DNA of 23,305 bases from the UHGV virus genome UHGV-0337120. One strand, written 5' to 3'. The position numbers and the translations under genes are program-made. The notes beneath the pieces were generated by a model. The model made no database searches. It had not been told where the DNA came from and worked only from the letters and a program-made list of their open reading frames with translations. Source of the stretch: a virus. This document shows, in pieces, positions 3,105-20,981 of this stretch; positions within the stretch are counted from its first letter, which is position 1; every line of letters starts with the position of its first letter.

Positions 3105-4250
3105 ATGAGCATCACTGAATCAGTAACACATCACATCAACAGCGCACTGGATGCAGCGGAAGATACCGTTAGGGTGCCAGACTTCACTATCACACTGGAA
3201 GGGAAAGATGCCAGCCTGAAGAACATCACGCAGCGCATCATGAGCCTGACCATGACAGACAACAGGGGTTTTGAGGCTGACAGGGTGACACTGGAAATCG
3301 ACGACGCCGACGGCGGGGTGGTACTTCCGGAACGCGGAACACGATTATCGCTGGCGATGGGGTGGAAAGGTGAAAGCCTCACTCGCAAGGGGACGTTTGT
3401 GGTGGACGAAGTGAGCCACGAAGGTCCGCCGGATAAGCTGACCATATCCGCGAACAGTGCGGATTTTCGCGAAGAGTTTAACGTGAAACGCGAAGTCTCC
3501 TGGCATGACGTGACCGTTGAGCGTGTGGTATCTGCCATCGCGCACCGTTACGGACTGAAAGCACAAATCAGCGAAATGCTGATGAATATCGAAATCGACC
3601 ATGCAGACCAGACAGAGGAAAGCGACATCTCGTTCCTCACGCGTATGGCTGACATGCTGGGTGCAATAACCACCGTAAAAAACGGGAGCCTGCTGTTCAT
3701 TCTGCCGGGTGGCGGTGTGACAGCCAGCGGGCGCGCCCTCCCCTCATTCGCCCTGACCCGCTCGGATGGCGACAGTCATCGCTTTCGCATTGCTGACAGA
3801 AAAGCCTATACCGGAGTGAAAGCTTACTGGCTGGATTTAAAGTTCGGCCAGAAGAAGGCCGTGAACGTGAAAAAGCGAAACGCGAAAACCACACAGAAGC
3901 CGGAGAAAAGCAGTTCACGGGAGGGTGGATACATGGAAGGCGCAGAAGGCAATGTATATGTGCTGAGAAAAACCTACCCGAACGAAGAAGCCGCGCGTCG
4001 CGCAGCTGCCGCACGCTGGCAGCAACTTCAGCGGGGTGCAGCAGAATTCAGCATCACGCTGGCGCGCGGACGCGCCGACCTGTATCCGGAGATGCACGGC
4101 ACGGTATCCGGGTTCAAGAGCGATATTGACAATCAGGACTGGGTTATTTCGCGCATTGAGCACGTCATCGACGACAGCGGCTTCACCACCAGACTGGAGC
4201 TGGAAGCAAAAATCGCAGACTGGATAGCAGAGCGCGCCACAACTGGCTAG
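3105..4250 (+). CDS. D: Tail protein / late control protein gpD-like
   Basis: 381 aa; blocks FTITLEGKD, LTMTDNRGFEADRV, SWHD, FLTRMA, GGYMEGAEGNV, AAEFSITLARGRADLYPE, DWVISRIEHV, GFTTRLELE align to P2 gpD from memory; GGGAGGG RBS. Confidence 0.9.
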   Translation: MSITESVTHHINSALDAAEDTVRVPDFTITLEGKDASLKNITQRIMSLTMTDNRGFEADRVTLEIDDADGGVVLPERGTRLSLAMGWKGESLTRKGTFVVDEVSHEGPPDKLTISANSADFREEFNVKREVSWHDVTVERVVSAIAHRYGLKAQISEMLMNIEIDHADQTEESDISFLTRMADMLGAITTVKNGSLLFILPGGGVTASGRALPSFALTRSDGDSHRFRIADRKAYTGVKAYWLDLKFGQKKAVNVKKRNAKTTQKPEKSSSREGGYMEGAEGNVYVLRKTYPNEEAARRAAAARWQQLQRGAAEFSITLARGRADLYPEMHGTVSGFKSDIDNQDWVISRIEHVIDDSGFTTRLELEAKIADWIAERATTG

Positions 4251-4291: not shown

Positions 4292-4594
4292 ATGCATCCT
4301 TGCCCATACTGCGGAGCAAGTACCCGCACCAGAACAAGCCGCGACGCCAACGATACAGGAACAATCAGGGAGAAATATTACCAGTGCAACAACATTGAAT
4401 GCAGCGCCACCTTTGTGACGCACGAGTTTGTCGTGAGAACCGTATGCCGTCCGCAACCCACCGAAGAACGGGGAGTCGTCCCCGCAGACGCTTTCAAATC
4501 ATGCCACCGGGGAAGGGATCAACTCAGCCTCCCCCTGGGCGATTGCGCCTCCCAGTCAAAAACTGTACATTACGCGCGGGTGCCTTTCGGCTGA
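4292..4594 (+). CDS. ogr: Ogr/Delta-family zinc-finger late transcription activator
   Basis: CPYC...QCNNIECSATF matches the Ogr C-x2-C...C-x4-C finger (P2 Ogr CPLC...QCQNVNCSATF); directly downstream of D as in P2. ORF is 100 aa, longer than P2 Ogr, so the C-terminal extent is uncertain. Confidence 0.8.
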   Translation: MHPCPYCGASTRTRTSRDANDTGTIREKYYQCNNIECSATFVTHEFVVRTVCRPQPTEERGVVPADAFKSCHRGRDQLSLPLGDCASQSKTVHYARVPFG

Positions 4595-4725: not shown

Positions 4726-4866
4726 ATGCCGCAAAAAACGATCATCGTGAGCATTTTATGCTTAACCATGTTGTTGACCGTCTGGATGATACACCGTTCA
4801 CCGTGTGAGTTCAGACTTAACATCATGTGGTCAGAATTTGCGGCGTTCTTGCAGTGTAAACAGTAA
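4726..4866 (+). CDS. hok: Hok/Gef-family type I toxin-like small membrane protein (46 aa)
   Basis: Hand translation MPQKTIIVSILCLTMLLTVWMIHRSPCEFRLNIMWSEFAAFLQCKQ. Shares the spacing CLT-x9-S-x-CE-x-R-x6-E-x-AAF with Hok (R1); GGAG RBS 8 nt upstream; structured 3' region with hairpin at 4875-4896 and terminator at 4961-4991. Too short to appear in the ORF track. Confidence 0.6.
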   Translation: MPQKTIIVSILCLTMLLTVWMIHRSPCEFRLNIMWSEFAAFLQCKQ

Positions 4867-4960
4867 GAAACCGCAGCGGGGGTGAAAGCCCCCGCTATCC
4901 GGTTGCCGAAGGTTCGGTCGAAAGTCGCACCCTCACACGCAAGTCACAAAGAAAAACAAA

Positions 4961-4991
4961 GCCCGCAGCGTAAAAACTGTGGGCTTTTTTT
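4961..4991 (+). terminator. Rho-independent terminator (8-bp stem with one G-U pair, then T7)
   Basis: gcccgcag-cgtaaaaa-ctgtgggc followed by ttttttt. Confidence 0.6.
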
Positions 4992-5061
4992 GTTTAACAA
5001 CCTGGCGGTGAAAACAACAAGCAGAGATAGTCTCACCAAAAAAATTTAGAACGCCATGGCA

Positions 5062-5251
5062 ATATGTGGACAACTCGAAAAATAATCCTTTATTTTTCAT
5101 TGCATTACATCAGTTTTCGCGCCACCCGAAGGTGGCATAAGGGGGTAGCACGTATCGCTATCCCCCTTTATATATCAAATGGTTACGAGTTCAAAGTAGT
5201 TCGGAATAGTGCCATTTAGTCCCCGTTTATGGGCAAAATCTGGACAACTCC
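5062..5251. other. Candidate attP region: two direct copies of AT-N-TGGACAACTC flanking a hairpin-rich core
   Basis: aTGTGGACAactcg at 5063-5076 and atcTGGACAactcc at 5238-5251; from memory the P2 Int arm-site consensus is TGTGGACA. Two hairpins at 5121-5166 lie between them. Position between ogr and int matches P2 attP. Confidence 0.35.
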
Positions 5252-6222
5252 GCAACCGGATTGAACCTTACCGCGTCCTGGAGATAATCAGGTGCAAAGT
5301 GCGCATAGGTCATTGTTTGCTGAATTGTGCTGTGCCCTAAAATACGCTGAAGGGTAATAATGTTCCCTCCATTTATCATGAAATGAGTTGCGAATGTGTG
5401 CCGTAAAACATGCACAGACTGACCGACTGGTAAATCAGGCCGCACAGTCCTTATTGCACTTCTGACTATCGCATAACTGGGGTTCATTAATCTTCCAGTC
5501 GCTTTGACTTTAATCAGAGATTCAAGATCTTTAGCTATAGGAATAACCCGCCGCGATCCATTCTTTGTCTCCATGAAAATAACCTTCCCACCAATTATGT
5601 GTTCACCTTTAATATTGGCAACTTCACCCCAGCGCCCGCCTGTAGCCAAGCTTAACAATACAGCCTTAAGATTATCGCCAGATAAAAGTGCGGTTAGCCT
5701 AGGAATATCATCATGTGCAAGATAAGCCATTTCCGGCTGATTAATTGTTAGCTTGCGTATCTCGTGAAACGGGTTATCACCCACAAACTCTTCAACATCA
5801 ATCAGCTTTTCAAAGAAACCGCTCATCATTGCACAATAACGATTTACCGTTGACTGCTTAATTCCGCGATTCATTAATTCAAGGCGATATCTGATAATAT
5901 TTTTTCGGGTTAAGTGGTCACTTCTGTTAATACCAAGCTCTTGCATATCACGAAGAACCGCTTCAATTCTGACCCGATTCATCGCGCCATAACGATGATT
6001 CTTACCGTGGTACACCCACCACAGTTCCAGAAGATCGCTTAACGCTTTACGTTCAATAGGTTTTTCGACCCAGTCCTTATCGTGATAATGCGTCAGAACA
6101 TGGCGTTCATACATCGCCGCTTCACCACGGGTAGGAAATCGCCGCCGAAATCTTCTTCCTTCAGATCCAGCAGGCCGCACGTCCACACAGTATTTGCCAT
6201 CAGCGAGCTTCTTAATCGACAT
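5227..6222 (-). CDS. int: Tyrosine integrase, P2 Int family
   Basis: N-terminus MSIKKLADGKYCVDVRPAG matches P2 Int MAIKKLDDGRYEVDIRP; C-terminal HVLRHTFATHFMINGGNIITLQRILGH...YAHFAPDYLQDA carries the catalytic R-H-R-Y region. Start set at the ATG giving MSIKK (6222), not the track's 6258. Confidence 0.92.
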   Translation of the reverse strand: MSIKKLADGKYCVDVRPAGSEGRRFRRRFPTRGEAAMYERHVLTHYHDKDWVEKPIERKALSDLLELWWVYHGKNHRYGAMNRVRIEAVLRDMQELGINRSDHLTRKNIIRYRLELMNRGIKQSTVNRYCAMMSGFFEKLIDVEEFVGDNPFHEIRKLTINQPEMAYLAHDDIPRLTALLSGDNLKAVLLSLATGGRWGEVANIKGEHIIGGKVIFMETKNGSRRVIPIAKDLESLIKVKATGRLMNPSYAIVRSAIRTVRPDLPVGQSVHVLRHTFATHFMINGGNIITLQRILGHSTIQQTMTYAHFAPDYLQDAVRFNPVAELSRFCP

Positions 6223-6288
6223 AAGGAAGCCCCCCAATGAAAACATCATCTTGATCACAATTTTGAGAAATAAAGGCCAGATGGACCG

Positions 6289-6582
6289 TTAACCAGTCTT
6301 CTTGCCGGAGTGGGGTGATTCCGATTCGCTTCGCCCAATGTGTGCGAGAGCCGGTACCACCTGCCCGACCTTTGGTTCGACCTCATCGAACAAAAACCAG
6401 TCGCGGTATTTAGAAAATCTCGGGTGCTTAAAAAGCTTGATAGTGATCTCAAGACCAGGAAGGTTACGACCATACTCATAACTGGTCAGAGCAGAGTAAG
6501 AAATCCCAATCATATCAGCGAACTCCCGTTGAGTGAGATCTTCAGATTTACGCATGACGCGAATTTTTTGAGGAATGTCCAT
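6289..6582 (-). CDS. C: Immunity repressor, P2 C-like
   Basis: 97 aa; MRKSE...PALAH...SPHSG.KTG aligns with P2 C from memory; AGGAG RBS; divergent from cox-like gene and upstream of int as in P2. Confidence 0.85.
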   Translation of the reverse strand: MDIPQKIRVMRKSEDLTQREFADMIGISYSALTSYEYGRNLPGLEITIKLFKHPRFSKYRDWFLFDEVEPKVGQVVPALAHIGRSESESPHSGKKTG

Positions 6583-6621
6583 TTGACAAACTCCTACATA
6601 TGTGTATTAATACCACATATG
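6583..6621. promoter_or_regulatory. Switch region: candidate early promoter (TTGACA-N17-ATTAAT) overlapped by an inverted repeat, candidate operator
   Basis: TTGACA at 6583-6588; CATATGTG (6597-6604) and CACATATG (6614-6621) form a perfect 8-bp inverted repeat around a TATTAATA-containing spacer. Confidence 0.4.
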
Positions 6622-6695
6622 AACATAAAAAGAAATGTTCTAAGTGGTTCCAACTAGTGCCAGATAGAAATAGCACCAATAACGGAGGATACCAG

Positions 6696-7121
6696 ATGCA
6701 AGAAGTCACTCAAAACGCGCCTGAATCGCCTGCCGAAACACAGTGCGATCAGTTGACAGATGCGCCAGAAACCGCACACCAAAAGACCGGGCGCAAAGCC
6801 CCTGAACGCCAAGAAATCAGGCTTTCACAAAACCCTTCTCATCTCCTGTCAAAAGAAGGGTTTGCGATGTATATCGGCAAGACCGTTAACGCCATCGTGA
6901 GCATGGCAAAAGCAGGGAAATTACCCGCTGTGTACATGGCGGACCCTCTCAAGCCTGGCGGAAACGCCGAACTTTACATCAACCGGAAAGCATGGGATGA
7001 AGCCTGCGATCGACTCACTGAAAACGCACCGCAAGAATGGCACGAATGGGAAAACCGACTTTTTTTATTTAAGCCAGCAGCTGGTTCACGGAATAAACGT
7101 ATCAGTAAAAAAGCAGCTTAA
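6696..7121 (+). CDS. cox: Cox-like excisionase / early repressor (HTH)
   Basis: Segment FAMYIGKTVNAIVSMAKAGKLPAVYMADP resembles P2 Cox FAKLIGKSTGAVRRMIDKGKLPVIDMTDP; GGAGGA RBS before ATG 6696. N-terminal 55 aa are low complexity, so true start is uncertain. Confidence 0.55.
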   Translation: MQEVTQNAPESPAETQCDQLTDAPETAHQKTGRKAPERQEIRLSQNPSHLLSKEGFAMYIGKTVNAIVSMAKAGKLPAVYMADPLKPGGNAELYINRKAWDEACDRLTENAPQEWHEWENRLFLFKPAAGSRNKRISKKAA

Positions 7122-7202
7122 TATCAAACACACAGCGAAATCCACAACAGGAGATTTCGCCGTAAATAATCTAATCGTTGGTGTTATGCGGGGGCGCAAC
7201 AA

Positions 7203-7640
7203 TCAACCAAGAAGACTTTTGAAAGCAAAGGATAACCCAGTAGTAAGAGCGGATGATGCGGTGCTTTTTATCGCGTCCATTGAGCCACTCTTGGCTGCAT
7301 CAACAAGCTTGTCGCCAAATGATTGTTTAAGTGACTCTGGATCAAGCTTAAGTAATTCAAGACCTTTGGCCGTGAGAACCGCATCAGAAAAGTAATGCGG
7401 AGGAGAAGATTTAGCGGATACATAACCAGCATCAACAAGCCATGCGATGGAGTCACGGCGAAGCTCAAGAGCTTCAACTAGTTGCCTCCTGGAGGATCGG
7501 TCTTCTTCAAAAGTCAGCTCTGAAACACCGGTTAAGGCACAAATATCAATAGTTACTTTGCGGGGAAAAGTTTCATAAAGAAACGCAAAAGTTTTACCAA
7601 CTGTTTCATTAAAAACATCAAGATTTGAAGGTGTTGACAT
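7203..7640 (-). CDS. Hypothetical protein, transcribed antisense to the early operon (cargo candidate)
   Basis: About 145-aa ORF filling the 500-bp gap between cox and the next plus-strand gene; GGAG RBS before ATG 7640; AT-richer than flanks; no motif recognised. Confidence 0.5.
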   Translation of the reverse strand: MSTPSNLDVFNETVGKTFAFLYETFPRKVTIDICALTGVSELTFEEDRSSRRQLVEALELRRDSIAWLVDAGYVSAKSSPPHYFSDAVLTAKGLELLKLDPESLKQSFGDKLVDAAKSGSMDAIKSTASSALTTGLSFAFKSLLG

Positions 7641-7833
7641 GACTGACTCCACTCAAACAAAAGACTTATACAGCGATTTACGATTCATCATCATACAACA
7701 GCAATCAGGCAGACTGGATCCAACACGTGCAAGCAAGGCCTGGAAAGAAGCACTTACCGATCAGGGGATCGATGTAATTAGCGAAGTCATGGCTGAAGTG
7801 ATTTTTAAGCTAACAAGAGACGAATCACTGTAA
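7639..7833 (+). CDS. Hypothetical small early protein
   Basis: 64 aa; GAAGGTG RBS 6 nt upstream; first gene of the packed plus-strand early operon. Confidence 0.4.
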   Translation: MTDSTQTKDLYSDLRFIIIQQQSGRLDPTRASKAWKEALTDQGIDVISEVMAEVIFKLTRDESL

Positions 7834-7858
7834 TCATCGCATAAGGACCGAGTGAAGA

Positions 7859-8197
7859 ATGAAGCAACAACGAAATGCACGCATCAATAACAACACCGAA
7901 CGCCACGTTGCACGCCAGCACTTCCGTAAAAATAGTGCGACCGTAACCACTGAAATCCATGTAACACCAGACGGTCACCCGGTAAAACAAACCGGCAAAC
8001 ACACCTGGGCGATTGGCGACACTGCCATCGTTATTCACAAAAGTTTTCGCAGTCCTGTTACTGGCAGATTTAATTTCACCCTGACTCGCGGGGATGATTA
8101 CTTCGGACAGGATTTCACATTTTTTGAAGCCTTAAGAACGGCAGACAGATTAATCAACGGCCTGTGTTTTCAATATCCGGGAAGTAAGTACCGATAA
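7859..8197 (+). CDS. Hypothetical early protein
   Basis: 112-aa ORF tightly packed in the early operon. Confidence 0.5.
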   Translation: MKQQRNARINNNTERHVARQHFRKNSATVTTEIHVTPDGHPVKQTGKHTWAIGDTAIVIHKSFRSPVTGRFNFTLTRGDDYFGQDFTFFEALRTADRLINGLCFQYPGSKYR

Positions 8198-8212
8198 ATA
8201 AAGGATTCAGTC

Positions 8213-8455
8213 ATGATCGAAGCCTACAAAATACTTATTAATAACGCGTTGCAGCGTTACCACTTTGAACTCGCAAACAGGGGCGTAACTAAGGATGAAA
8301 GCCTTCGTAACTCACTGCGCGGCGCAATTATGGGACTGTATAACTGCGCGCTGGGCAGCGATGACCGTGAAGCGCTGGAAGAATTAAAGTCGATTATGAC
8401 AGAACTGTTTGAAGGTGAAATTGTTGAGCCTTACTTCACAGGGGTGGCAGCATGA
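8213..8455 (+). CDS. Hypothetical early protein
   Basis: 80-aa ORF; stop overlaps the next start (ATGA). Confidence 0.5.
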   Translation: MIEAYKILINNALQRYHFELANRGVTKDESLRNSLRGAIMGLYNCALGSDDREALEELKSIMTELFEGEIVEPYFTGVAA

Positions 8456-8577
8456 TCATATTCCTTTCATGGCTAATTCTGATTATCTCCGTACTTATGG
8501 CAATCGGCATTATGCGAATTATCCACACACTGAAGGATATCGAATTATTCTTTACCGGCGATAAACGCCGTAAATAA
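8452..8577 (+). CDS. Small hydrophobic single-TM peptide (41 aa)
   Basis: MIIFLSWLILIISVLMAIGIMRIIHTLKDIELFFTGDKRRK; ATGA-coupled to upstream gene. Confidence 0.35.
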   Translation: MIIFLSWLILIISVLMAIGIMRIIHTLKDIELFFTGDKRRK

Positions 8578-8589
8578 AGCGAAAACGTT

Positions 8590-8685
8590 ATGAAGAATGT
8601 AAAAGCAATACTCACCATTGCCAGTGTGTGGCTGATATTTCAGGTGTGTGCGCTTATCTGGTTAGCCCTGAAGATCTGGGAATAA
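8590..8685 (+). CDS. Small hydrophobic single-TM peptide (31 aa)
   Basis: MKNVKAILTIASVWLIFQVCALIWLALKIWE; weak RBS. Confidence 0.3.
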   Translation: MKNVKAILTIASVWLIFQVCALIWLALKIWE

Positions 8686-12759: not shown

Positions 12760-13176
12760 ATGAAGAGCGTTAAGGGGCTTTCAGATATTCAGGACTTTTT
12801 TAACTGGATGTGGGCGGTGGATCCCCTGCTGGCTTCCCGCCTGAACAACTGGCACGACTATTACCGCCGCGCCTGTAAACAGGCTGCCCGCAGCGTCACC
12901 ACATACGGGGATTTCTCCTTCACCGTGGACGGTCGTTACCGCGTGGACGTGAAAGGTGATGGTGATGGACTGGGTTTATTTCACATCAACGGCACCGACA
13001 GTACCGCCATCAGCTGGTCGTCATCAGAGATGGCGCTGGTTCTGGAAATGACAACCCACAGCGTGGCCGTGAAAGGTATATACACCGCAGAAGGTTTTAT
13101 CGGCGAATACCAGCGCCTTCTCGTGCTGTACCGCGCGGCGTTTCAGGTGGCAACTGCCGGGGAGTACGACGCATGA
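12760..13176 (+). CDS. Hypothetical protein upstream of A
   Basis: 138 aa; GGAGG RBS; stop overlaps A start (ATGA). Confidence 0.5.
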   Translation: MKSVKGLSDIQDFFNWMWAVDPLLASRLNNWHDYYRRACKQAARSVTTYGDFSFTVDGRYRVDVKGDGDGLGLFHINGTDSTAISWSSSEMALVLEMTTHSVAVKGIYTAEGFIGEYQRLLVLYRAAFQVATAGEYDA

Positions 13177-15686
13177 GTGACCGCAATGCACAGCTGGCGT
13201 ACCCGTGGAACGCACCGCTACCGGTTATCGATCCTGAAACGTTCGGCAGAGCACAACCAACCGCATTACGCCAGGCCATTCAGAGCTACATCAACGAGGA
13301 CATTCGCATTGATGCCAGACTGGATGAAGAAACCGTCTCCTTCCTGACAAACACAGACGAAGGCAAGCGAATTAATTCGCACCTTCACCACGACGAAGAG
13401 CGTCGGATCAGACTGGAAAAACTGGCGCGGCACAAACGCGAAAATCCGCCCACACTGGTATCTGAAGCCATGGCAGAGCTGCGCGCCCTGCCGCCGTTTC
13501 TTGCCAGTCCGCTCATCCGGGACCTGGCTCGCCTGAGCCGCAAACAGGAGAGCGCACGCCGGGAAGGGCTTAAGAATAACAGCGCATATGCGGCGGATAA
13601 CTTCGTTCGTCATGGGCTGCGTGCCCGCCTGAAACGTATCGCCCGTGTGAATGAACGCTTTGCCACCCCGGCCTTTAAGGCCACCGCCGCCCGCGAACGG
13701 CTGGATGAACTGCTTATACTGCCGCAGCTGAGCCGTGACGAAATCCAGCGCCTTGCCACCCTGACCGCCACCGCGTTTTCCGCCGCACTGGAGCGCGCAT
13801 GTGATGAGATCATCGAAAAGACCGGCAGGGGTGACGATGACCTGTTCACCTGGTTACTGACCTACCAGTCACTGGCACACATGGCGTTAAAACTGGGTAT
13901 CACGCCACCCTGCTGGCCGTCGCTGGAAATCAGGCCAGACCGCCGCACCGCCCCCAACCCGGAACGGGTGCCGGGTGCGGTCATGCGCCTTTCCTGTGCG
14001 ACATGGTGGAACAGTCAGTTAAGACACCTCCGGGACATCTGGCGTGAAGAGCTGTTACGCGCCGCAGGTCTGGTGTCACGTAAGACATCGGTATATATCA
14101 GCCATGAAGCGTTACTGGACTGGCGCGAAAAACGCCAGCGCACCCGCGATTTTCTGAAGGCCTGGGACATCGAGAACGAAGAGGGAGAACGGTTCAGCCT
14201 TGAGGATATCTACTGGGCAGGTCTCTCTAATCCGCGTAACCGCCGTAACGAGATGATGACCTGCGCCCGGGGAATGGAGCAGGTCGCCGAAGCACGCGGC
14301 GATGTGGCGTTTTTCGTCACCGTCACAGCCCCTTCCCGTTTTCACAGCGTGAACGATGACGGCAGTCTGAACCCGAAATACTGCGGGGCAACGGTACGCG
14401 ATGCCAGTGATTATCTGGTTTACCGCTTTTTCGCCGCCGTCCGCAGGGCCATCGACAAGGCCGGGCTGGGCTGGTACGGCGTGCGCACAGTGGAGCCCCA
14501 CCACGACGGTACACCGCACTGGCACATGCTGGTATTCACCAGCCAGGAAAACGAAGCCCGTATCACTGAAATCATGCGCAACGCCGCCATCAGGGAGGAC
14601 CGCGCAGAGCTGGGTGATGATATCTCCCCGCGTTTTAAATGCGAAAAAATCGACCCGGCAAAAGGCACACCGACAAGCTATATCGCGACCTATATCGGTA
14701 AGAACCTGGACGCCAGCGCCTTCATGGGAAATGACCCGAAAACCGGCAAACCTTACGTCGATAAGGAATCAGGCAAAACCATGGCCGAAACCGTGGAGAA
14801 CGCCATCGGCTGGGCAGGCCTTCACCGCATCCACCAGTTCCAGTTCTTCGGTATCCCGCCCCGCCAGGTATGGCGCGAACTCCGCAGCCTTGCCGGGCAG
14901 ATGGCCCGTAACCCGACTGCCCCACAGCGTCTGGACCATGACGACATTGACGCCATACTGGCCGCCGCCGACGTGGGATGTTTTGCCACCTATATCACCC
15001 GCCAGGGTGGTGTGCTCATTCCCCGCAACACGTACCTGGTCCGCACCGCATACGAAACTGCCGAAGAGGCCAACGACTACGGCGAATTCCCGCAACGCAT
15101 TTACGGCGTCCGCGCCCCGTTACTCGGGGAGCGCTACACCATATGCACCCACCCGGACACCTGGAAACTGGTCAGACGTAAGCCGGAAAACGAAGACCGC
15201 ACGGACGAGGGTTTTGACGTTGAGTGCGGCTTTGCCGCACCTTGGACTCGTGGCAATAACTGTCCCCATGATGAAAAAACAGACACCGGAGAGGGTAAAA
15301 CCCCACCACCGGAAGCCAGGAAAGAACAAAAACTGGTCGTCCCGGGAGGTGATTTGGGTGAGTGGTTAAGGTCACTGACCCCCACAAAGCGAAAACAACT
15401 CACCAGGCAGCTGAAAGATGCGACATCTGACACAAAAACCGTGAAAACCGGCAGCCCCACCACGCCCGATGACGTCATACATGTGCGTACAGCATTGCCG
15501 CTGACTGACGTCACCACCACCGTAATCAAGTCGGCACTGAGCGCGACGGGCGAGGAGCTACACAGTGGCGCAGCACTTTCCGTACACAGAGGTGCACGCG
15601 TTCGCCTGCCTGACGGGCGGATTGTGCACTGGGATGAGAAATCACGAAGCCTGGTGGCAGCAGATCAACCGGAGGTGAACCCATGA
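13173..15686 (+). CDS. A: Rolling-circle replication initiator, gpA-like
   Basis: 837 aa; VEPHHDGTPHWHMLVF matches P2 A VEPHHDGTPHWHMMLF (HUH-type metal motif); downstream GYIAKYISKN-like SYIATYIGKN also conserved. Confidence 0.92.
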   Translation: MSDRNAQLAYPWNAPLPVIDPETFGRAQPTALRQAIQSYINEDIRIDARLDEETVSFLTNTDEGKRINSHLHHDEERRIRLEKLARHKRENPPTLVSEAMAELRALPPFLASPLIRDLARLSRKQESARREGLKNNSAYAADNFVRHGLRARLKRIARVNERFATPAFKATAARERLDELLILPQLSRDEIQRLATLTATAFSAALERACDEIIEKTGRGDDDLFTWLLTYQSLAHMALKLGITPPCWPSLEIRPDRRTAPNPERVPGAVMRLSCATWWNSQLRHLRDIWREELLRAAGLVSRKTSVYISHEALLDWREKRQRTRDFLKAWDIENEEGERFSLEDIYWAGLSNPRNRRNEMMTCARGMEQVAEARGDVAFFVTVTAPSRFHSVNDDGSLNPKYCGATVRDASDYLVYRFFAAVRRAIDKAGLGWYGVRTVEPHHDGTPHWHMLVFTSQENEARITEIMRNAAIREDRAELGDDISPRFKCEKIDPAKGTPTSYIATYIGKNLDASAFMGNDPKTGKPYVDKESGKTMAETVENAIGWAGLHRIHQFQFFGIPPRQVWRELRSLAGQMARNPTAPQRLDHDDIDAILAAADVGCFATYITRQGGVLIPRNTYLVRTAYETAEEANDYGEFPQRIYGVRAPLLGERYTICTHPDTWKLVRRKPENEDRTDEGFDVECGFAAPWTRGNNCPHDEKTDTGEGKTPPPEARKEQKLVVPGGDLGEWLRSLTPTKRKQLTRQLKDATSDTKTVKTGSPTTPDDVIHVRTALPLTDVTTTVIKSALSATGEELHSGAALSVHRGARVRLPDGRIVHWDEKSRSLVAADQPEVNP

Positions 15687-16135: not shown

Positions 16136-16306
16136 ATGAACGACATCAGGAGGATCAGCGACAAAGAGCTTACGAAAATGATTGAGTCGGCGCAGCAGCT
16201 GCTTTCACGACGAAATCCGGTTGTGGAAGAAACATGGTGGGAAAATTTACTGGCAGCACTGACCGAACTCCGCGAACGCCGGAACAACGAAGGAGCCGCC
16301 AAATGA
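16136..16306 (+). CDS. Hypothetical small helical protein
   Basis: 56 aa from ATG 16136 (AAGGAG RBS); track ORF starts earlier at 16097. Confidence 0.4.
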   Translation: MNDIRRISDKELTKMIESAQQLLSRRNPVVEETWWENLLAALTELRERRNNEGAAK

Positions 16307-16641
16307 AGACACCCAGAATGACCGGAAAGGTAATCATTTTACGCTACCTGGAAACGCACGCACGCTTCAGCGCACCAGAGCTGGTTGAAAAACTGGGCGT
16401 GAAAAGGACCATCATTAATCAGGCCGCCGGAAAGATGGTACGCGAAGGGCTGCTGGTTGTGGACGGGTACACGGACAAGATAACGCATTACCGGAAGCCA
16501 ACGGAAAAGGAACGACTGGAGCTGGAGCGGCGGGCTGAACAGCAACAAAAGCCGTCCGTAATCCAGGACTGCAAGCGAAGCGAAATCATGAAGCGAATTC
16601 TGTTTATCTACGGCGCTGGCGAAGAGCTGCCAGTCATCTAA
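16303..16641 (+). CDS. Putative winged-helix DNA-binding protein
   Basis: 112 aa from ATG 16303 (ATGA overlap with previous stop); segment LRYLETHARFSAPELVEKLGVKRTIINQAAGKMVREGLLVVDG looks like a MarR-like wHTH (fold-level guess). Confidence 0.45.
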   Translation: MKTPRMTGKVIILRYLETHARFSAPELVEKLGVKRTIINQAAGKMVREGLLVVDGYTDKITHYRKPTEKERLELERRAEQQQKPSVIQDCKRSEIMKRILFIYGAGEELPVI

Positions 16642-16673: not shown

Positions 16674-16991
16674 ATGCCAACACAGGTTGCAACAGAGGGA
16701 CGACTGGCAGCAGACCCGAACACAAGGAGAACAACCAAAGGAACCAACGTCACAACGGCACAACTGGCGGTATCACTACCCTGCCATGGCGCAGAACAGC
16801 CAACCACAATGTGGCTTTACCTTATTTCATTCGGGAAGCAGCACGAAGAACTGGCAAAACACAGAAAAGGCGATCTGATTCTGGTGCACGGAAACTTGCA
16901 GGTAAACAGGTATCAGGACAAGTACGGGCAACAGAAAGAGGGCTGGCAGTTGCTGGCGCAAAGCATTATCAGCTCAAGAACCGGGCGATGA
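16674..16991 (+). CDS. Truncated SSB-like OB-fold protein lacking the acidic C-terminal tail
   Basis: 105 aa; G.L..DP..R.T..G..V....LAVS...W....FGK..E......KG....V.G.L....Y.D..GQ aligns with the E. coli SSB OB-fold from memory; no Gly-rich linker or DDDIPF tail. Confidence 0.5.
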   Translation: MPTQVATEGRLAADPNTRRTTKGTNVTTAQLAVSLPCHGAEQPTTMWLYLISFGKQHEELAKHRKGDLILVHGNLQVNRYQDKYGQQKEGWQLLAQSIISSRTGR

Positions 16992-17001
16992 CTTCACGCA
17001 T

Positions 17002-17041
17002 GTTACCCTCAGCAGCGAGGGTAACACAGGATTTCTTTTTT
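17002..17041 (+). terminator. Terminator hairpin between convergent genes
   Basis: Perfect 9-bp stem GTTACCCTC-agcagc-GAGGGTAAC, T-run at 17034-17039. Confidence 0.55.
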
Positions 17042-17547
17042 CAGTCAAACCGAAATCGGCCGCTTGTCGCGTATGCATAGGTGACCACCGCACCCAGCGC
17101 ATTCACACGCTTCTTCACATAAATCACATTACCATCCTGATAGTCACCGTATGGGTAGCAAATAAAGATTGTTTTTTGCAAATCAGGATCATCAACAAAT
17201 GCCCCTGAACAACTTTTTGAGCTACCGCGACTGTACTCATAGGGAGCGGAATAGAATGAATCTTCACCCGGAAGAAAATATATCAGCGTAACCAGGAGGG
17301 TAAACAGAATCATCCAGGTAAGAAGGCACATACCCGAAAAAAACTTAAGATACGATGTAACCCCGGTAAATTTAGACCGATCAACCAGGTTCTTTTTCAA
17401 CAGGCACAGTGAGACAAAAACCGAAAGCACCACAGACACTGAAACAAGGCAGTTTGTCGTGAACGAATAAAGGTAGGTAATTCTGTAAACATCGTTTCGC
17501 CACCAAATAAAAAGAAAAATCCCCCCCCAAAACAGAAAGCGTGACAA
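17041..17547 (-). CDS. Multi-TM membrane protein with C-terminal soluble domain (cargo candidate in A-cos region)
   Basis: 168-aa ORF, AT-rich; three hydrophobic segments then ~75-aa Y/G/D-rich tail; only TTG/GTG starts available; G8 tract (plus C8 17521-17528) within first 10 codons. Confidence 0.45.
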   Translation of the reverse strand: MSRFLFWGGIFLFIWWRNDVYRITYLYSFTTNCLVSVSVVLSVFVSLCLLKKNLVDRSKFTGVTSYLKFFSGMCLLTWMILFTLLVTLIYFLPGEDSFYSAPYEYSRGSSKSCSGAFVDDPDLQKTIFICYPYGDYQDGNVIYVKKRVNALGAVVTYAYATSGRFRFD

Positions 17548-18131: not shown

Positions 18132-19175
18132 TCAGCTGGCGCCATCCTGAAGCAGCGAATAGGGATTAAAGCGCATCACTTCAACCCCAAGCCATTCATT
18201 GACATGCTTCATCGCTTCCATGACCGGTTGCAACTCGTTGATGAAAAATACCCTCGCCGCCTTCTCAACGTCACCGAACGCCGCGTTCCCGTCAGGCATT
18301 GCCCCCATCAGCTGAGGCGGTACACGGTGAGCCGCAAGGATATCGTCGCGGGCACTCCCCTTGATGTTAAGGAATTCGTCCTTCGCGGTGATTTGCTGGA
18401 ACGGCAGTATTTGCACACCATCCTTGCCGCCACCTGGCGCGTGCAGAAGGATATTGCGGAACGCCCCCTTGCCACGGGATTCCGTGAGTGTTTTCTTGAT
18501 GGCTTCCACGCTTTCAGCGTTTGCCTGGGCGGCACCAACATAGACAATGCACCCGGCATGTGAACCGTTGTCATAGTAGAGCTTGCGGAACGTATCCGCT
18601 GAGTTCGACAGACTCACCGACAGCAACCCACCGATATACTCCGGCATCCCGTAGATTTCCTGGTTGATATCGGGGTTCAGAACGTGGCACACAGCCCCCT
18701 TACGGAAAGCAAATTCAGAACCATCATCATTGAGGTACCAGTACGTATCGAGATCACTGCCCCGCCGCGTGTATTTCGCCAGCGCAGGACGAAGCGCAAT
18801 GGGTTCACCGAACTTGTTGCGGCGGACTTCAAGATAGGCATTACCGAACACGAACCAGTCCAGCGCAAACGCGGAAAACGCCTGGCGGGACAGTAGCGGA
18901 TGAGGAACAAAGCAGCCGTTCAGGGCATTACGCTTAAAATACAGGGCCGACTGGTGCCATGATGCACGACGCGAGGCGCGAGCAATGGCATTCCAGTCCA
19001 TGGGGGTGTCATAGTAGCGGCCATTATCGGCGCACGACATGTTATCAAGCAGATCAAGACGGCTTGCTTCATAAGGACCGTCAAACGTGAAAGCACTGAG
19101 TGACGGCGCTGATTTCAGTGCATCAGCCAGTGAGCCCGTGCCGCGCTTTCCGGTGTATTTTTTACGTTTACTCAT
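18132..19175 (-). CDS. Q: Portal protein, gpQ-like
   Basis: 347 aa; blocks EPDINQEIYGMPEY, YDNGSHAG, LAAHRVPPQLMG, GDVEKAARVF match P2 Q from memory. Confidence 0.92.
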   Translation of the reverse strand: MSKRKKYTGKRGTGSLADALKSAPSLSAFTFDGPYEASRLDLLDNMSCADNGRYYDTPMDWNAIARASRRASWHQSALYFKRNALNGCFVPHPLLSRQAFSAFALDWFVFGNAYLEVRRNKFGEPIALRPALAKYTRRGSDLDTYWYLNDDGSEFAFRKGAVCHVLNPDINQEIYGMPEYIGGLLSVSLSNSADTFRKLYYDNGSHAGCIVYVGAAQANAESVEAIKKTLTESRGKGAFRNILLHAPGGGKDGVQILPFQQITAKDEFLNIKGSARDDILAAHRVPPQLMGAMPDGNAAFGDVEKAARVFFINELQPVMEAMKHVNEWLGVEVMRFNPYSLLQDGAS

Positions 19176-19180
19176 TGTGT

Positions 19181-20914
19181 TCAGAACTCCATTGCAAAGC
19201 CACGATTATCCTCACGCTCTGCGCCGATTGGCTCATTGATAACAGCAAGCATGGTTGCCCAGGCGAGATCACCATGACTGACACCGCGTGAGCGGTCAGT
19301 GTCATAGGTGATATAGCCGCCGGGCGTCTGTATTTTTCGCACCGATGCAAAGGCCTGTACCAGGTCGCGCTCGCTGCGGTCATACTCCCAGCGTCCGGCA
19401 CGGACCACCTGAAGCATCTTCATGACCAGCGCCCGCTTTGAAGCGATATTAAAGTTATACGGAACAGCCAGGGGGAAGAATTTTTTCACTATCTGATAAA
19501 CCCCTTCCCCGTTCCCGCCGGTGACATCAATCCCGATATGCTTCACATTGTATTTTTGGGTGTACTCCTCAATCAGGGCGGCCTGCTGTTCAAACTCCAT
19601 GCCCTGAACCCTGACGGTTTCCACCGTACGAAAACGCCCACCGGCAACAAGGGGTGGCACGCACACCGACAGCGCCCCGCAGTCCCCCTTCCCGCTGCTG
19701 CCGTTGGCGTCATACCCGAGCCAGACTTCCCTCACCCCCATAGGGCGGACAGCAAAAGGCTTCCAGTCCGGCCATTCGTCATAGCCATCAACACCGCACC
19801 CGACGAGCGTATTCAGACTGAAGGCTGCCTCACCATCACGGACAAATTCGCACATGTACAGATTACGAAATTCACTTTCTGTATTTTCGCCGCGAATAAC
19901 ACCAATATTGGTGTACCGCCATCCGTTAGCGACAGCATCCTCAATAGTGACAATCTGCCGCCATGTTTCGTCAGGAAAGAGCACGCCCCCCTTCAGATGC
20001 GCATGTGAAACATCAAACTCACTGCGTTTTGAGCGTGGCTGTTCGCTGTTCCAGCGGTCCCCCGTCCAGAACTGATACGCCTCATGTGTTTCACCTGACG
20101 GTGTTGAAAAGTAGGTTCGCGTAAGCCCTTCCAGTGTCGCCATTGCCCCAGCAACCTTCCTGAGTTCCACAAAGTTACTGACCCAGAAAAATTCGTCGAA
20201 TTTAAGATGACCGGTATAGGACTGCGCGGTGGCAGCTGACGTACCGAGGAAGTGCAGCTCCGCGCCGTTGGACAGCACGATCTTGTCGCCCCCTTTCAGC
20301 TCAACATCCACTTCCAGCGCCGCCTGCTGAATAAAATGCTTGAACTGATACGCCTGACGACGGGAGGCGGACAAAAATATCTGGTTGCGCTGATACCCGG
20401 CGGAGACGTCATCACGCAGTGCATCAAGGAGCGCCTCGCGCGCAAAATACCAGGTCGCACCAATCTGACGCGACTTCAGGATCATACGGTTGCGGTGGTG
20501 ACGGTTTTCGTACCATTCACGTTGATGCCACGCCAGCGTCGGGAGGATTTTTTCACGAAGCGCGACAATCTGTTCTTCGGTGAAGTGATTTTTCAGTCTG
20601 CGTTTACGGGGCTTTTTACCGGAAACGGCCTGTTCTCCCTGACCGTCATTCAGTTTTTTCAGCTGGCGCGTGAGAAGGTCAATTTCCTTAAAATCGCTGC
20701 CGCTTTTCTCTGTTTTTGTGGTGAGCTGGATCAGGCGCGCATCAATGGACTGGGTGACCCGCTGGATCGGAGGTGTGGCATCCCACTCATCGCGTTTTTT
20801 CCATGAGTAAATCGTGTTCTGGCTGATCCCCATCAGTTGCGAGATTTCCGCAGGTGTGTACCCTTGCCAGTAAAGTTGTCTTGCCCTTATGCGGACAAAT
20901 GCATCCTGAATCAT
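19181..20914 (-). CDS. P: Terminase large (ATPase) subunit, gpP-like
   Basis: 578 aa from ATG 20914 (AGGGGG RBS); adjacent to and co-oriented with Q, divergent from O, as in P2. Confidence 0.9.
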   Translation of the reverse strand: MIQDAFVRIRARQLYWQGYTPAEISQLMGISQNTIYSWKKRDEWDATPPIQRVTQSIDARLIQLTTKTEKSGSDFKEIDLLTRQLKKLNDGQGEQAVSGKKPRKRRLKNHFTEEQIVALREKILPTLAWHQREWYENRHHRNRMILKSRQIGATWYFAREALLDALRDDVSAGYQRNQIFLSASRRQAYQFKHFIQQAALEVDVELKGGDKIVLSNGAELHFLGTSAATAQSYTGHLKFDEFFWVSNFVELRKVAGAMATLEGLTRTYFSTPSGETHEAYQFWTGDRWNSEQPRSKRSEFDVSHAHLKGGVLFPDETWRQIVTIEDAVANGWRYTNIGVIRGENTESEFRNLYMCEFVRDGEAAFSLNTLVGCGVDGYDEWPDWKPFAVRPMGVREVWLGYDANGSSGKGDCGALSVCVPPLVAGGRFRTVETVRVQGMEFEQQAALIEEYTQKYNVKHIGIDVTGGNGEGVYQIVKKFFPLAVPYNFNIASKRALVMKMLQVVRAGRWEYDRSERDLVQAFASVRKIQTPGGYITYDTDRSRGVSHGDLAWATMLAVINEPIGAEREDNRGFAMEF

Positions 20915-20981
20915 TGACGCCCCCTTGCTGTTTGATCTCAAGAGTAAACGCCCGCGCATTCATCCAGGTATCCGGTGCCAT

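Follow-up and report, generated by a model that had tools for sequence, protein, structure and literature searches.

A divergent gene pair in the early region of a P2-like phage: a highly probable accessory cassette with a possible role in prophage defence and self-immunity

What is the role of a gene oriented opposite to the early operon of a P2-like phage, and does it belong to the phage backbone or to its cargo? This question is raised by the virus genome UHGV-0337120, of which the whole stretch of 23,305 nucleotides (nt), hereafter the window, was analysed. An earlier note, made from the letters alone, had described an antisense open reading frame (ORF) of roughly 145 amino acids (aa) with its own ribosome-binding site (RBS), located in AT-richer DNA between cox and the first plus-strand early gene, and had interpreted it as a cargo gene of the kind usually expressed in the lysogen. 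We find that this gene, here called A, shares its start with a small gene on the opposite strand, B, and we are highly confident that A and B together form an accessory two-gene cassette. As far as the sequence goes, the cargo interpretation is partly supported, yet it is incomplete, the unit being a cassette of two genes.

Gene A is a genuine protein-coding gene and more than a chance ORF, since it matches PHROG 2266, a family of unknown function, over its full length (E 1.2e-31; residues 4-140 on profile positions 2-143 of 144), has 1531 relatives at E<=1e-3 in a profile and hidden Markov model (HMM) search of 1.8 billion representatives, nearly all of them single-domain proteins of about 145 aa, and evolves under purifying selection, with a ratio of nonsynonymous to synonymous substitution rates (dN/dS) of 0.22-0.24 against homologues of 55-78% identity. 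The longest minus-strand ORF at this place extends from 7203 to 7652 and would encode 149 aa from a GTG. However, the true start is the ATG at 7640, because the homologues begin at the same MS(T)PSN, so that the N-terminus MSTPSN of A aligns to their residue 1, because the Prokaryotic Genome Annotation Pipeline (PGAP) calls the identical 438-nt gene in E. coli, and because a GGAG is situated 6 nt upstream. The size of about 145 aa and the RBS of its own given in the earlier note were thus correct.

The start of A overlaps that of B (Table 1). While the position between cox and the first plus-strand early gene was right, A overlaps the ATG of that gene by 2 nt, and the latter is not a separate neighbour: a B homologue, detected with an HMM built on the B family, is directly divergent from A in 73 of the 116 analysed loci with an A homologue. 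Since the CATG is shared, the Shine-Dalgarno sequence of A sits in the opening codons of B and vice versa. Because each of these sites falls within the first codons of the partner, it follows from the sequence that the RBS-bearing mRNAs of A and B are necessarily complementary over both translation-initiation regions. Moreover, transcription from the early promoter Pe has to cross A in antisense direction before it reaches B.

Table 1. Positions in the window of the A/B cassette, its signals and the surrounding phage genes.
Feature	Position (nt)	Strand	Remarks
Exchangeable cassette (terminator, A, B)	7125..7858		Variable slot from cox to the DUF4761 gene
Gene A	7203..7640	-	145 aa, acidic predicted winged-helix protein, PHROG 2266; conserved helical tail (residues 102-145) predicted with low confidence
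Gene B	7639..7833	+	64 aa, predicted three-helix bundle; conserved partner of A; same direction as the early operon
CATG	7638..7641		Palindrome; ATGs of A and B overlap head-to-head by 2 nt; read from sequence
Shine-Dalgarno of A, GGAG	7647..7650	-	Inside codons 3-4 of B
Shine-Dalgarno-like site of B, GAAGGTG	7627..7633	+	Inside codons 3-5 of A
Terminator-like hairpin	7131..7164	-	3' of A; T-rich tail in minus direction only; consensus scan and inverted repeat I2
Candidate -10 box TATAAG	7665..7670	-	Inside B; tentative; TATA-like box aligned there in enterobacterial homologues
gpD	3105..4250		
ogr	4292..4594		Followed by a gap, then the integrase
Integrase	5227..6258	-	
C-type helix-turn-helix repressor	6289..6582	-	
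cox	6696..7121	+	PF10743, E 1e-27
DUF4761 gene	7859..8197		Downstream of A/B
DUF4754 gene	8213..8455		Further early-region ORFs beyond
Replication protein gpA	13173..15686		Assigned by P2-like position and size alone
Portal	18132..19175	-	Assigned by P2-like position and size alone
Terminase	19181..20959	-	Assigned by P2-like position and size alone

Like A, gene B is under purifying selection (dN/dS 0.13-0.19). Its family is characterized by the motif Q..G.MD.VRA..YW..L....LAEAL and had 120 cluster matches, every one of them annotated as hypothetical; no match was obtained in Pfam, NCBIfam or PADLOC. Public gene calls often omit B, and the simple ORF picker used in our analysis skipped it in loci L015, L029 and others. 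In L118, a 389-nt gap (6612-7000) appears as intergenic at the place where L104 and L108 of the same clade have B; L118 was not itself searched for B. Two further observations concern the extent of the B protein. B-family proteins weakly match positions 168-235, i.e. the C-terminal third, of PHROG 3787 (242 aa, unknown function; E about 1e-3), hence a B-like domain fused to something larger may exist as well. Furthermore, many B-family proteins from Pseudomonas and Janthinobacterium end in a cysteine-rich C-terminus (e.g. PRCxCCRxC; examples are L020, L037, L104, L108 and L113, proteins P0182-P0219), which may represent a metal-binding extension, and which the enterobacterial B proteins do not have.

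The status of A and B as cargo rests on several observations: they are present or absent in one and the same slot, their GC content is lower than that of the flanks, they bring a terminator-like hairpin of their own, and they occupy differing slots elsewhere. In locus L005, cox is 97% identical and the homology ends at 7124, where 314 nt of unrelated DNA with a small plus-strand ORF follow. Loci L004 and L120, which have a different immunity region, keep B and all rightward sequence, and A is reduced there to its final 34-38 nt, which are the ribosome-binding region of B. The GAAGGTG of B is 100% identical in prophages that carry B without A. Since B starts 51-67 nt behind the preceding early gene in such B-only prophages, it can do without its own promoter. 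A survey of 5426 complete E. coli genomes found full-length A in 3 and B in 20, of which 17 are B-only. The AT-richer DNA noticed before could be confirmed, with 42.7% GC in A and 43.3% in the cassette compared to 49.8% in cox, 46.3% in the DUF4761 gene and 52.7% in the window, although the region from the integrase to the early genes has itself only 45.1%. The hairpin downstream of A is suggestive only, since terminator-like sites are no more numerous in this region than in shuffled sequences.

The opposite interpretation, namely that A is a conserved core early gene of the phage lineage, was the outcome by which the earlier note would have given up the cargo assignment. A is indeed placed within the early region and flanked by conserved early genes. 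Nevertheless, the core-gene explanation is refuted by presence/absence, which shows A to be accessory, and we consider it extremely unlikely: A is missing from close prophages that share cox or the downstream genes, its full-length version is restricted to the few E. coli genomes mentioned above, and in other phages it is housed in head, tail or lysis regions. The cargo status is also consistent with the literature. The interval between int and gpA is a recognised minor defence hotspot of P2 that contains 8% of the P2 defence systems (PMC13586616). Genes that are antisense to lytic operons and have their own promoter are regarded as typical accessory loci, and the orientation of A against the early operon, to which the earlier note had pointed, is the one linked with lysogen-expressed morons (PMC7067206).

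The pairing of A and B is found well beyond the window. We took 109 related loci from genomes and IMG/VR. In 59 of the 116 A loci, the 2-nt overlap is identical and belongs to an opposite-strand ATG ORF of 64-85 aa (46 distinct sequences). In the tree of A, lineages with B are dispersed and several B-less clades are nested among them, which suggests an old pairing with repeated losses. Both flanking genes are antisense to A and parallel to B in 42 of 55 distinct loci with B, compared to 11 of 37 loci without it; these frequencies, like the other counts over these loci, are approximate. The A-B pair occurs in E. coli, Yersinia, Serratia, Salmonella, Klebsiella, Pectobacterium, Providencia and Pseudomonas, and also in metagenome-assembled genomes of other groups. 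It occupies the main P2 hotspot between gpA and the portal (gpA-Q) in Klebsiella phage ST147-VIM1phi7.1, phage Midge, FSL SP-004 and more than 1500 Salmonella assembly blocks, the interval between C and cox in Yersinia, and the early region of a Serratia P2-like prophage. Further slots are situated between the large terminase and gpW/portal in lambda-type head modules of Pseudomonas, between antiterminator Q and holin S, and between the tail tube and the tail assembly chaperone gene. The terL/portal, Q/holin, tube/chaperone and gpA-Q slots were confirmed by Pfam on the neighbouring genes.

Some neighbours of the cassette deserve mention in their own right. In Klebsiella and Salmonella P2-like prophages, it adjoins an overlapping pair of genes for a small protein (102-106 aa) and a 316-aa protein (L001 4562-5798; L122-L124 2195-3431). 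The Klebsiella record labels the pair as XRE-family protein and RNA-directed DNA polymerase, and for the Salmonella copies no Pfam match is on record. A functional tie of the cassette to this adjacent XRE and reverse transcriptase pair was rejected, as Midge and FSL SP-004 have the cassette without it. In the Yersinia prophage L006, an antisense 155-aa ORF with hydrophobic stretches (4781-5248, plus strand) lies between the cassette and cox and is likely cargo. Furthermore, in L031 (8508-11416; also in L032) a B-less A-like gene is directly upstream of, and co-oriented with, genes for a SIR2_2-like protein and a HerA (DUF87) ATPase, an arrangement that resembles the SIR2-HerA defence system.

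Two small, tightly linked and co-inherited genes under purifying selection might also serve to stabilise the prophage as a toxin-antitoxin or addiction pair, and a ParE-like gene in the same early region of relatives indicates that toxin-antitoxin-like cargo exists nearby. However, A and B are divergent and form no operon, loci with only one of them are common, no toxin-like domain and no match in PADLOC or Pfam was obtained for either protein, and the predicted winged helix and three-helix bundle are unlike known toxins. Hence, we regard an addiction function as quite improbable, slightly more so than the explanations via antisense RNA or a role during infection that are discussed below.

Regarding the proteins themselves, the remote homology searches and structure predictions proposed in the earlier note yielded the PHROG 2266 match and a fold, while Pfam, NCBIfam and PADLOC gave nothing for A. 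Thus, the absence of a recognisable motif holds for these three libraries, but a winged helix is predicted. AlphaFold2 (AF2) run on a 19-sequence alignment reached predicted local distance difference test (pLDDT) values of 78-93 for residues 11-90 and of 73-75 for the blocks 1-10 and 91-100, and residues 1-100 are predicted to fold in the order helix, strand, helix, long helix, beta-hairpin wing and helix, which corresponds to the winged-helix fold. The motif W-L-x3-G-Y ... L-T-x-K-G-x-E-x-L lies within the winged helix, and the most conserved stretch, DAVLTAKGLEVLK..P.SL..GD.L..A.K.G, leads from the wing into the conserved tail, for which helices are predicted at low confidence. The tail was also considered as a membrane anchor; this was rejected, because its maximal 19-residue hydropathy of 0.85 (family median 1.0) is well under transmembrane values. 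The A family is acidic, with a median isoelectric point (pI) of 4.8 and 98% of 94 distinct members below 6; the N-terminal domain of this A has a pI of 4.9. For B, AF2 predicts the three-helix bundle with a pLDDT of 89, and no informative structural neighbour of this prediction was found.

The predicted fold leads to the main rival explanation, in which A would act as a winged-helix repressor that binds DNA and would be antagonised by the small B, the two making up a mini-switch with face-to-face promoters like Pe/Pc of P2. Such a switch would control either phage development or host genes, or else confer repressor-type immunity against other phages with the same module. Overlapping starts force promoters to face each other, as in the switches of P2 and 186, so that geometry and fold both favour this explanation. 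Searches with A against PDB gave noise or weak winged-helix matches alone (AspA and eS10, E about 0.2), with AspA heading the weak matches of the profile search (E 0.2). In addition, sequence variation within the family is greatest in the first half of the putative recognition helix, which would be expected if specificities differ, and the Midge homologue is annotated as a putative transcriptional regulator. Although the predicted fold of residues 1-100 resembles regulators of the MarR, PadR and TubR type, A differs from them in its lack of a family profile match, its acidic instead of basic character and its extra conserved C-terminal tail. Among 21 diverse A homologues there was no Pfam match (no helix-turn-helix, MarR or PadR profile at E<=0.1) and no PADLOC match, and the putative recognition helix has no basic residues in the Pseudomonas members. 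The repeat search near the junction revealed no operator-like repeats, but only the terminator hairpin and one short direct repeat that corresponds to two similar peptide motifs of A, FNET and LYET. Moreover, late head and tail operons also harbour the cassette, and a developmental switch would find no obvious target there. For these reasons, the switch is the explanation that has to be taken most seriously among the rivals, but we consider it unlikely.

The architecture of A/B finds its closest parallels in prophage defence systems that carry their own off-switch; this is a likeness of working and not family membership. An antisense gene set against a lytic operon that bears its small partner is present in the window and in the 42 of 55 distinct loci with B named above. 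In the experimentally shown pair Tai/Ati of coliphage phi80 (tail assembly inhibition; He et al. 2024; PMC11364771), an opposite-strand defence gene likewise interrupts the lytic operon, the operon holds a small counter-defence gene (76 aa), and the 5' ends overlap head-to-head, though orf63 (minus strand) and orf64 (plus strand) do so by 20 nt in phi80 compared to 2 nt in A/B. Ati binds its cognate Tai, and Tai sits in moron slots of Enterobacteria prophages, including hotspots of the P2/P4 type (PMC11364771). In contrast to the 145-aa A with its predicted winged helix, TaiEcA comprises 204 aa. In the Tab/anti-Tab pair of Pseudomonas phage JBD26 (Patel et al. 2024; PMC10884400), anti-Tab is encoded on the plus strand in the late operon, binds Tab and alone gives escape. 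Many A/B cassettes in Pseudomonas prophages also adjoin terminase genes, but Tab and anti-Tab have 83 aa each and their genes are convergent with overlapping 3' ends. For Tha/Ith of Staphylococcus aureus prophages (Rostol et al. 2024), the inhibitor alone leads to phage escape (PMC11087260). Tha is a HEPN RNase from the cI operon with ith in antisense, whereas in A/B it is the putative defence gene that runs antisense. A also lacks a HEPN domain, and the host phylum differs. The same principle applies to Listeria TerI, which is accompanied by two anti-TerI proteins (bioRxiv 2025.02.27.640495). Finally, as accessory DNA of a P2-like phage, A/B resembles the hotspot cargo of P2 (tin, old, Z/fun; Rousset et al. 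2022; PMC13586616). The cassettes of Salmonella, Klebsiella and Midge occupy the main gpA-Q hotspot; A/B differs from this cargo in matching no system catalogued in PADLOC 2.0.

Taken as a whole, we read A/B as a mobile cargo cassette with a lysogen-expressed defence or exclusion protein A and a lytic-phase antidote B, a reading that we judge plausible at somewhat below even chances by analogy with the systems above. Its parts are not equally firm: a reciprocal expression of A and B in lysogenic and lytic growth is rather likely, while the assignment of defence to A and of antidote to B is more tentative than the reading as a whole and draws on the same analogy. In the lysogen, the C repressor would silence Pe, and a weak promoter of its own, situated within B or farther out, would drive A, with the transcript ending at the hairpin 7164-7131. 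During lytic growth, transcription from Pe would read antisense through A into B and might shut A off by transcriptional interference and RNA pairing, and the B protein then produced could neutralise the A protein that is already present. Experiments have demonstrated this logic for the three unrelated pairs Tai/Ati, Tha/Ith and Tab/anti-Tab. As an acidic winged-helix protein with a conserved flexible tail, A would most likely bind a protein or nucleic acid of the incoming phage, B acting as self-immunity factor. B-only prophages might represent natural escapers. The 17 B-only E. coli genomes would fit such a role, because in Tai/Ati, Tha/Ith and Tab/anti-Tab the antidote alone allows escape.

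The complementarity of the two transcripts also permits an explanation in which the RNA counts more than the protein, i.e. the A mRNA would act as an antisense RNA, either by controlling B and the early operon or by keeping out superinfecting relatives that have B. Its sequence is complementary to about 500 nt of the early transcript and to the RBS and start codon of B, B-only relatives exist as possible targets, and STnc6030 of BTP1 provides a precedent of a prophage antisense RNA that causes superinfection exclusion (PMC7067206). An Rfam scan of 6200-8600 yielded nothing. However, A is selected as a protein, as evidenced by its dN/dS, by conserved residues at a family identity of about 30% and by the confidently predicted fold. 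Hence, an RNA role is possible only on top of the protein role, to which the geometry inherently adds an RNA contribution, and we regard it as improbable that the transcript is the main product.

Several findings weigh against the interpretation of A/B as defence and antidote pair. The strict sigma-70 scan detected no promoter for A (or for B), and scans with position weight matrices over the loci yielded no more than a weak positional clustering of -10-like boxes, located about 35-43 nt upstream of A, that is inseparable from the coding constraints of B. In A, neither an effector nor an enzymatic domain could be recognised, nor did PADLOC return a match, the PADLOC-DB 2.0 library used being of 2023 vintage. 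Neither gene strictly requires its partner, since 43 of the 116 loci are A-only and B-only loci occur as well. As the loci were retrieved by A-derived peptide patterns and the neighbours came from a crude ORF picker, the frequencies given above are approximate. Neither at the sequence nor at the profile level do A and B resemble Tai, Ati, Tab or anti-Tab, and homology to them was rejected: A against TaiEcA (phi80 orf63) resulted in a BLASTP E value of 6.8 and an hhalign probability of 0.1%, B against AtiEcA (orf64) in no hit and a profile hhalign probability of 0.07%, and the comparison of the A and B profiles with Tab and anti-Tab (JBD26 gp31 and gp30) in probabilities of 0.4% and 3.6%. The Tai family was defined by PSI-BLAST.

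A last point against the defence and antidote interpretation is the A-like gene of several B-less clades that is co-oriented with late or tail genes. The same observation supports the alternative that A serves the phage during infection, as an acidic anti-defence or host-takeover protein, and that its antisense orientation is incidental. Small acidic phage proteins often inhibit host systems. Nevertheless, the opposition of A to both neighbours in most distinct loci with B, across several unrelated backbones, is hard to square with expression from a lytic operon, and the terminator-like hairpin of the cassette serves the direction of A only. An infection role thus appears about as improbable to us as the antisense RNA.

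What can be said firmly is that A/B is a widespread uncharacterised family with an architecture of a recently discovered kind, which makes it a good candidate for experiments without any demonstrated novelty. Prophage defences with a self-off-switch (Tha/Ith, Tai/Ati, Tab/anti-Tab, TerI) are recent and only a handful of families is known; A/B shows the same wiring with unrelated proteins. The cassette is common, being present on several backbones and, in its Salmonella version alone, in the many assembly blocks mentioned above, and it is missed by PADLOC. More speculatively, and with less confidence than we place in the defence and antidote roles, it may be an unrecognised widespread family of prophage defence and self-immunity in enterobacterial and Pseudomonas prophages, with an acidic winged-helix effector, an RNA-level toggle at the CATG and B-only phages as natural escapers. 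In this toggle, each mRNA would occlude the translation start of the other, whereby the cargo would be locked to lysogeny and the antidote to lytic growth. Should A and B prove to be a defence pair, a small acidic winged-helix protein would be a new type of effector, and the prophages with A and B, with A only and with B only would represent a natural experiment on self-immunity and escape. With its strictly conserved 2-nt head-to-head overlap, the pair of starts also makes a clean model of how two translation initiation sites may control each other in antisense.

The remainder of the window belongs to a P2-like phage in non-integrated gene order, in which gpD, ogr, the gap and int are contiguous and attP is intact. 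Some deviations and additional genes were noticed. The tail sheath gene (1758-2963) and the adjoining ORF (1246-1758), a tube candidate by position only, are both on the minus strand and divergent from gpD, an arrangement that departs from the P2 order FI-FII-E-T-U-D. In the early region, two hydrophobic mini-ORFs of 41 and 31 aa (8452-8577 and 8590-8685, plus strand) lie in the AT-richest stretch (39% GC), and the 41-aa one is annotated by PGAP in E. coli relatives. On the 3' side of gpA, two plus-strand genes (16234-16641 and 16674-16991) encode a weakly MarR_2-like protein (E 3e-5, under the Pfam cutoff) and a protein of the single-stranded DNA-binding family. Inside the classical P2 hotspot between gpA and the portal, a 168-aa ORF on the minus strand (17041-17547; 43% GC, no Pfam match) opposes the flanking plus-strand genes and is a second cargo candidate of phage UHGV-0337120.

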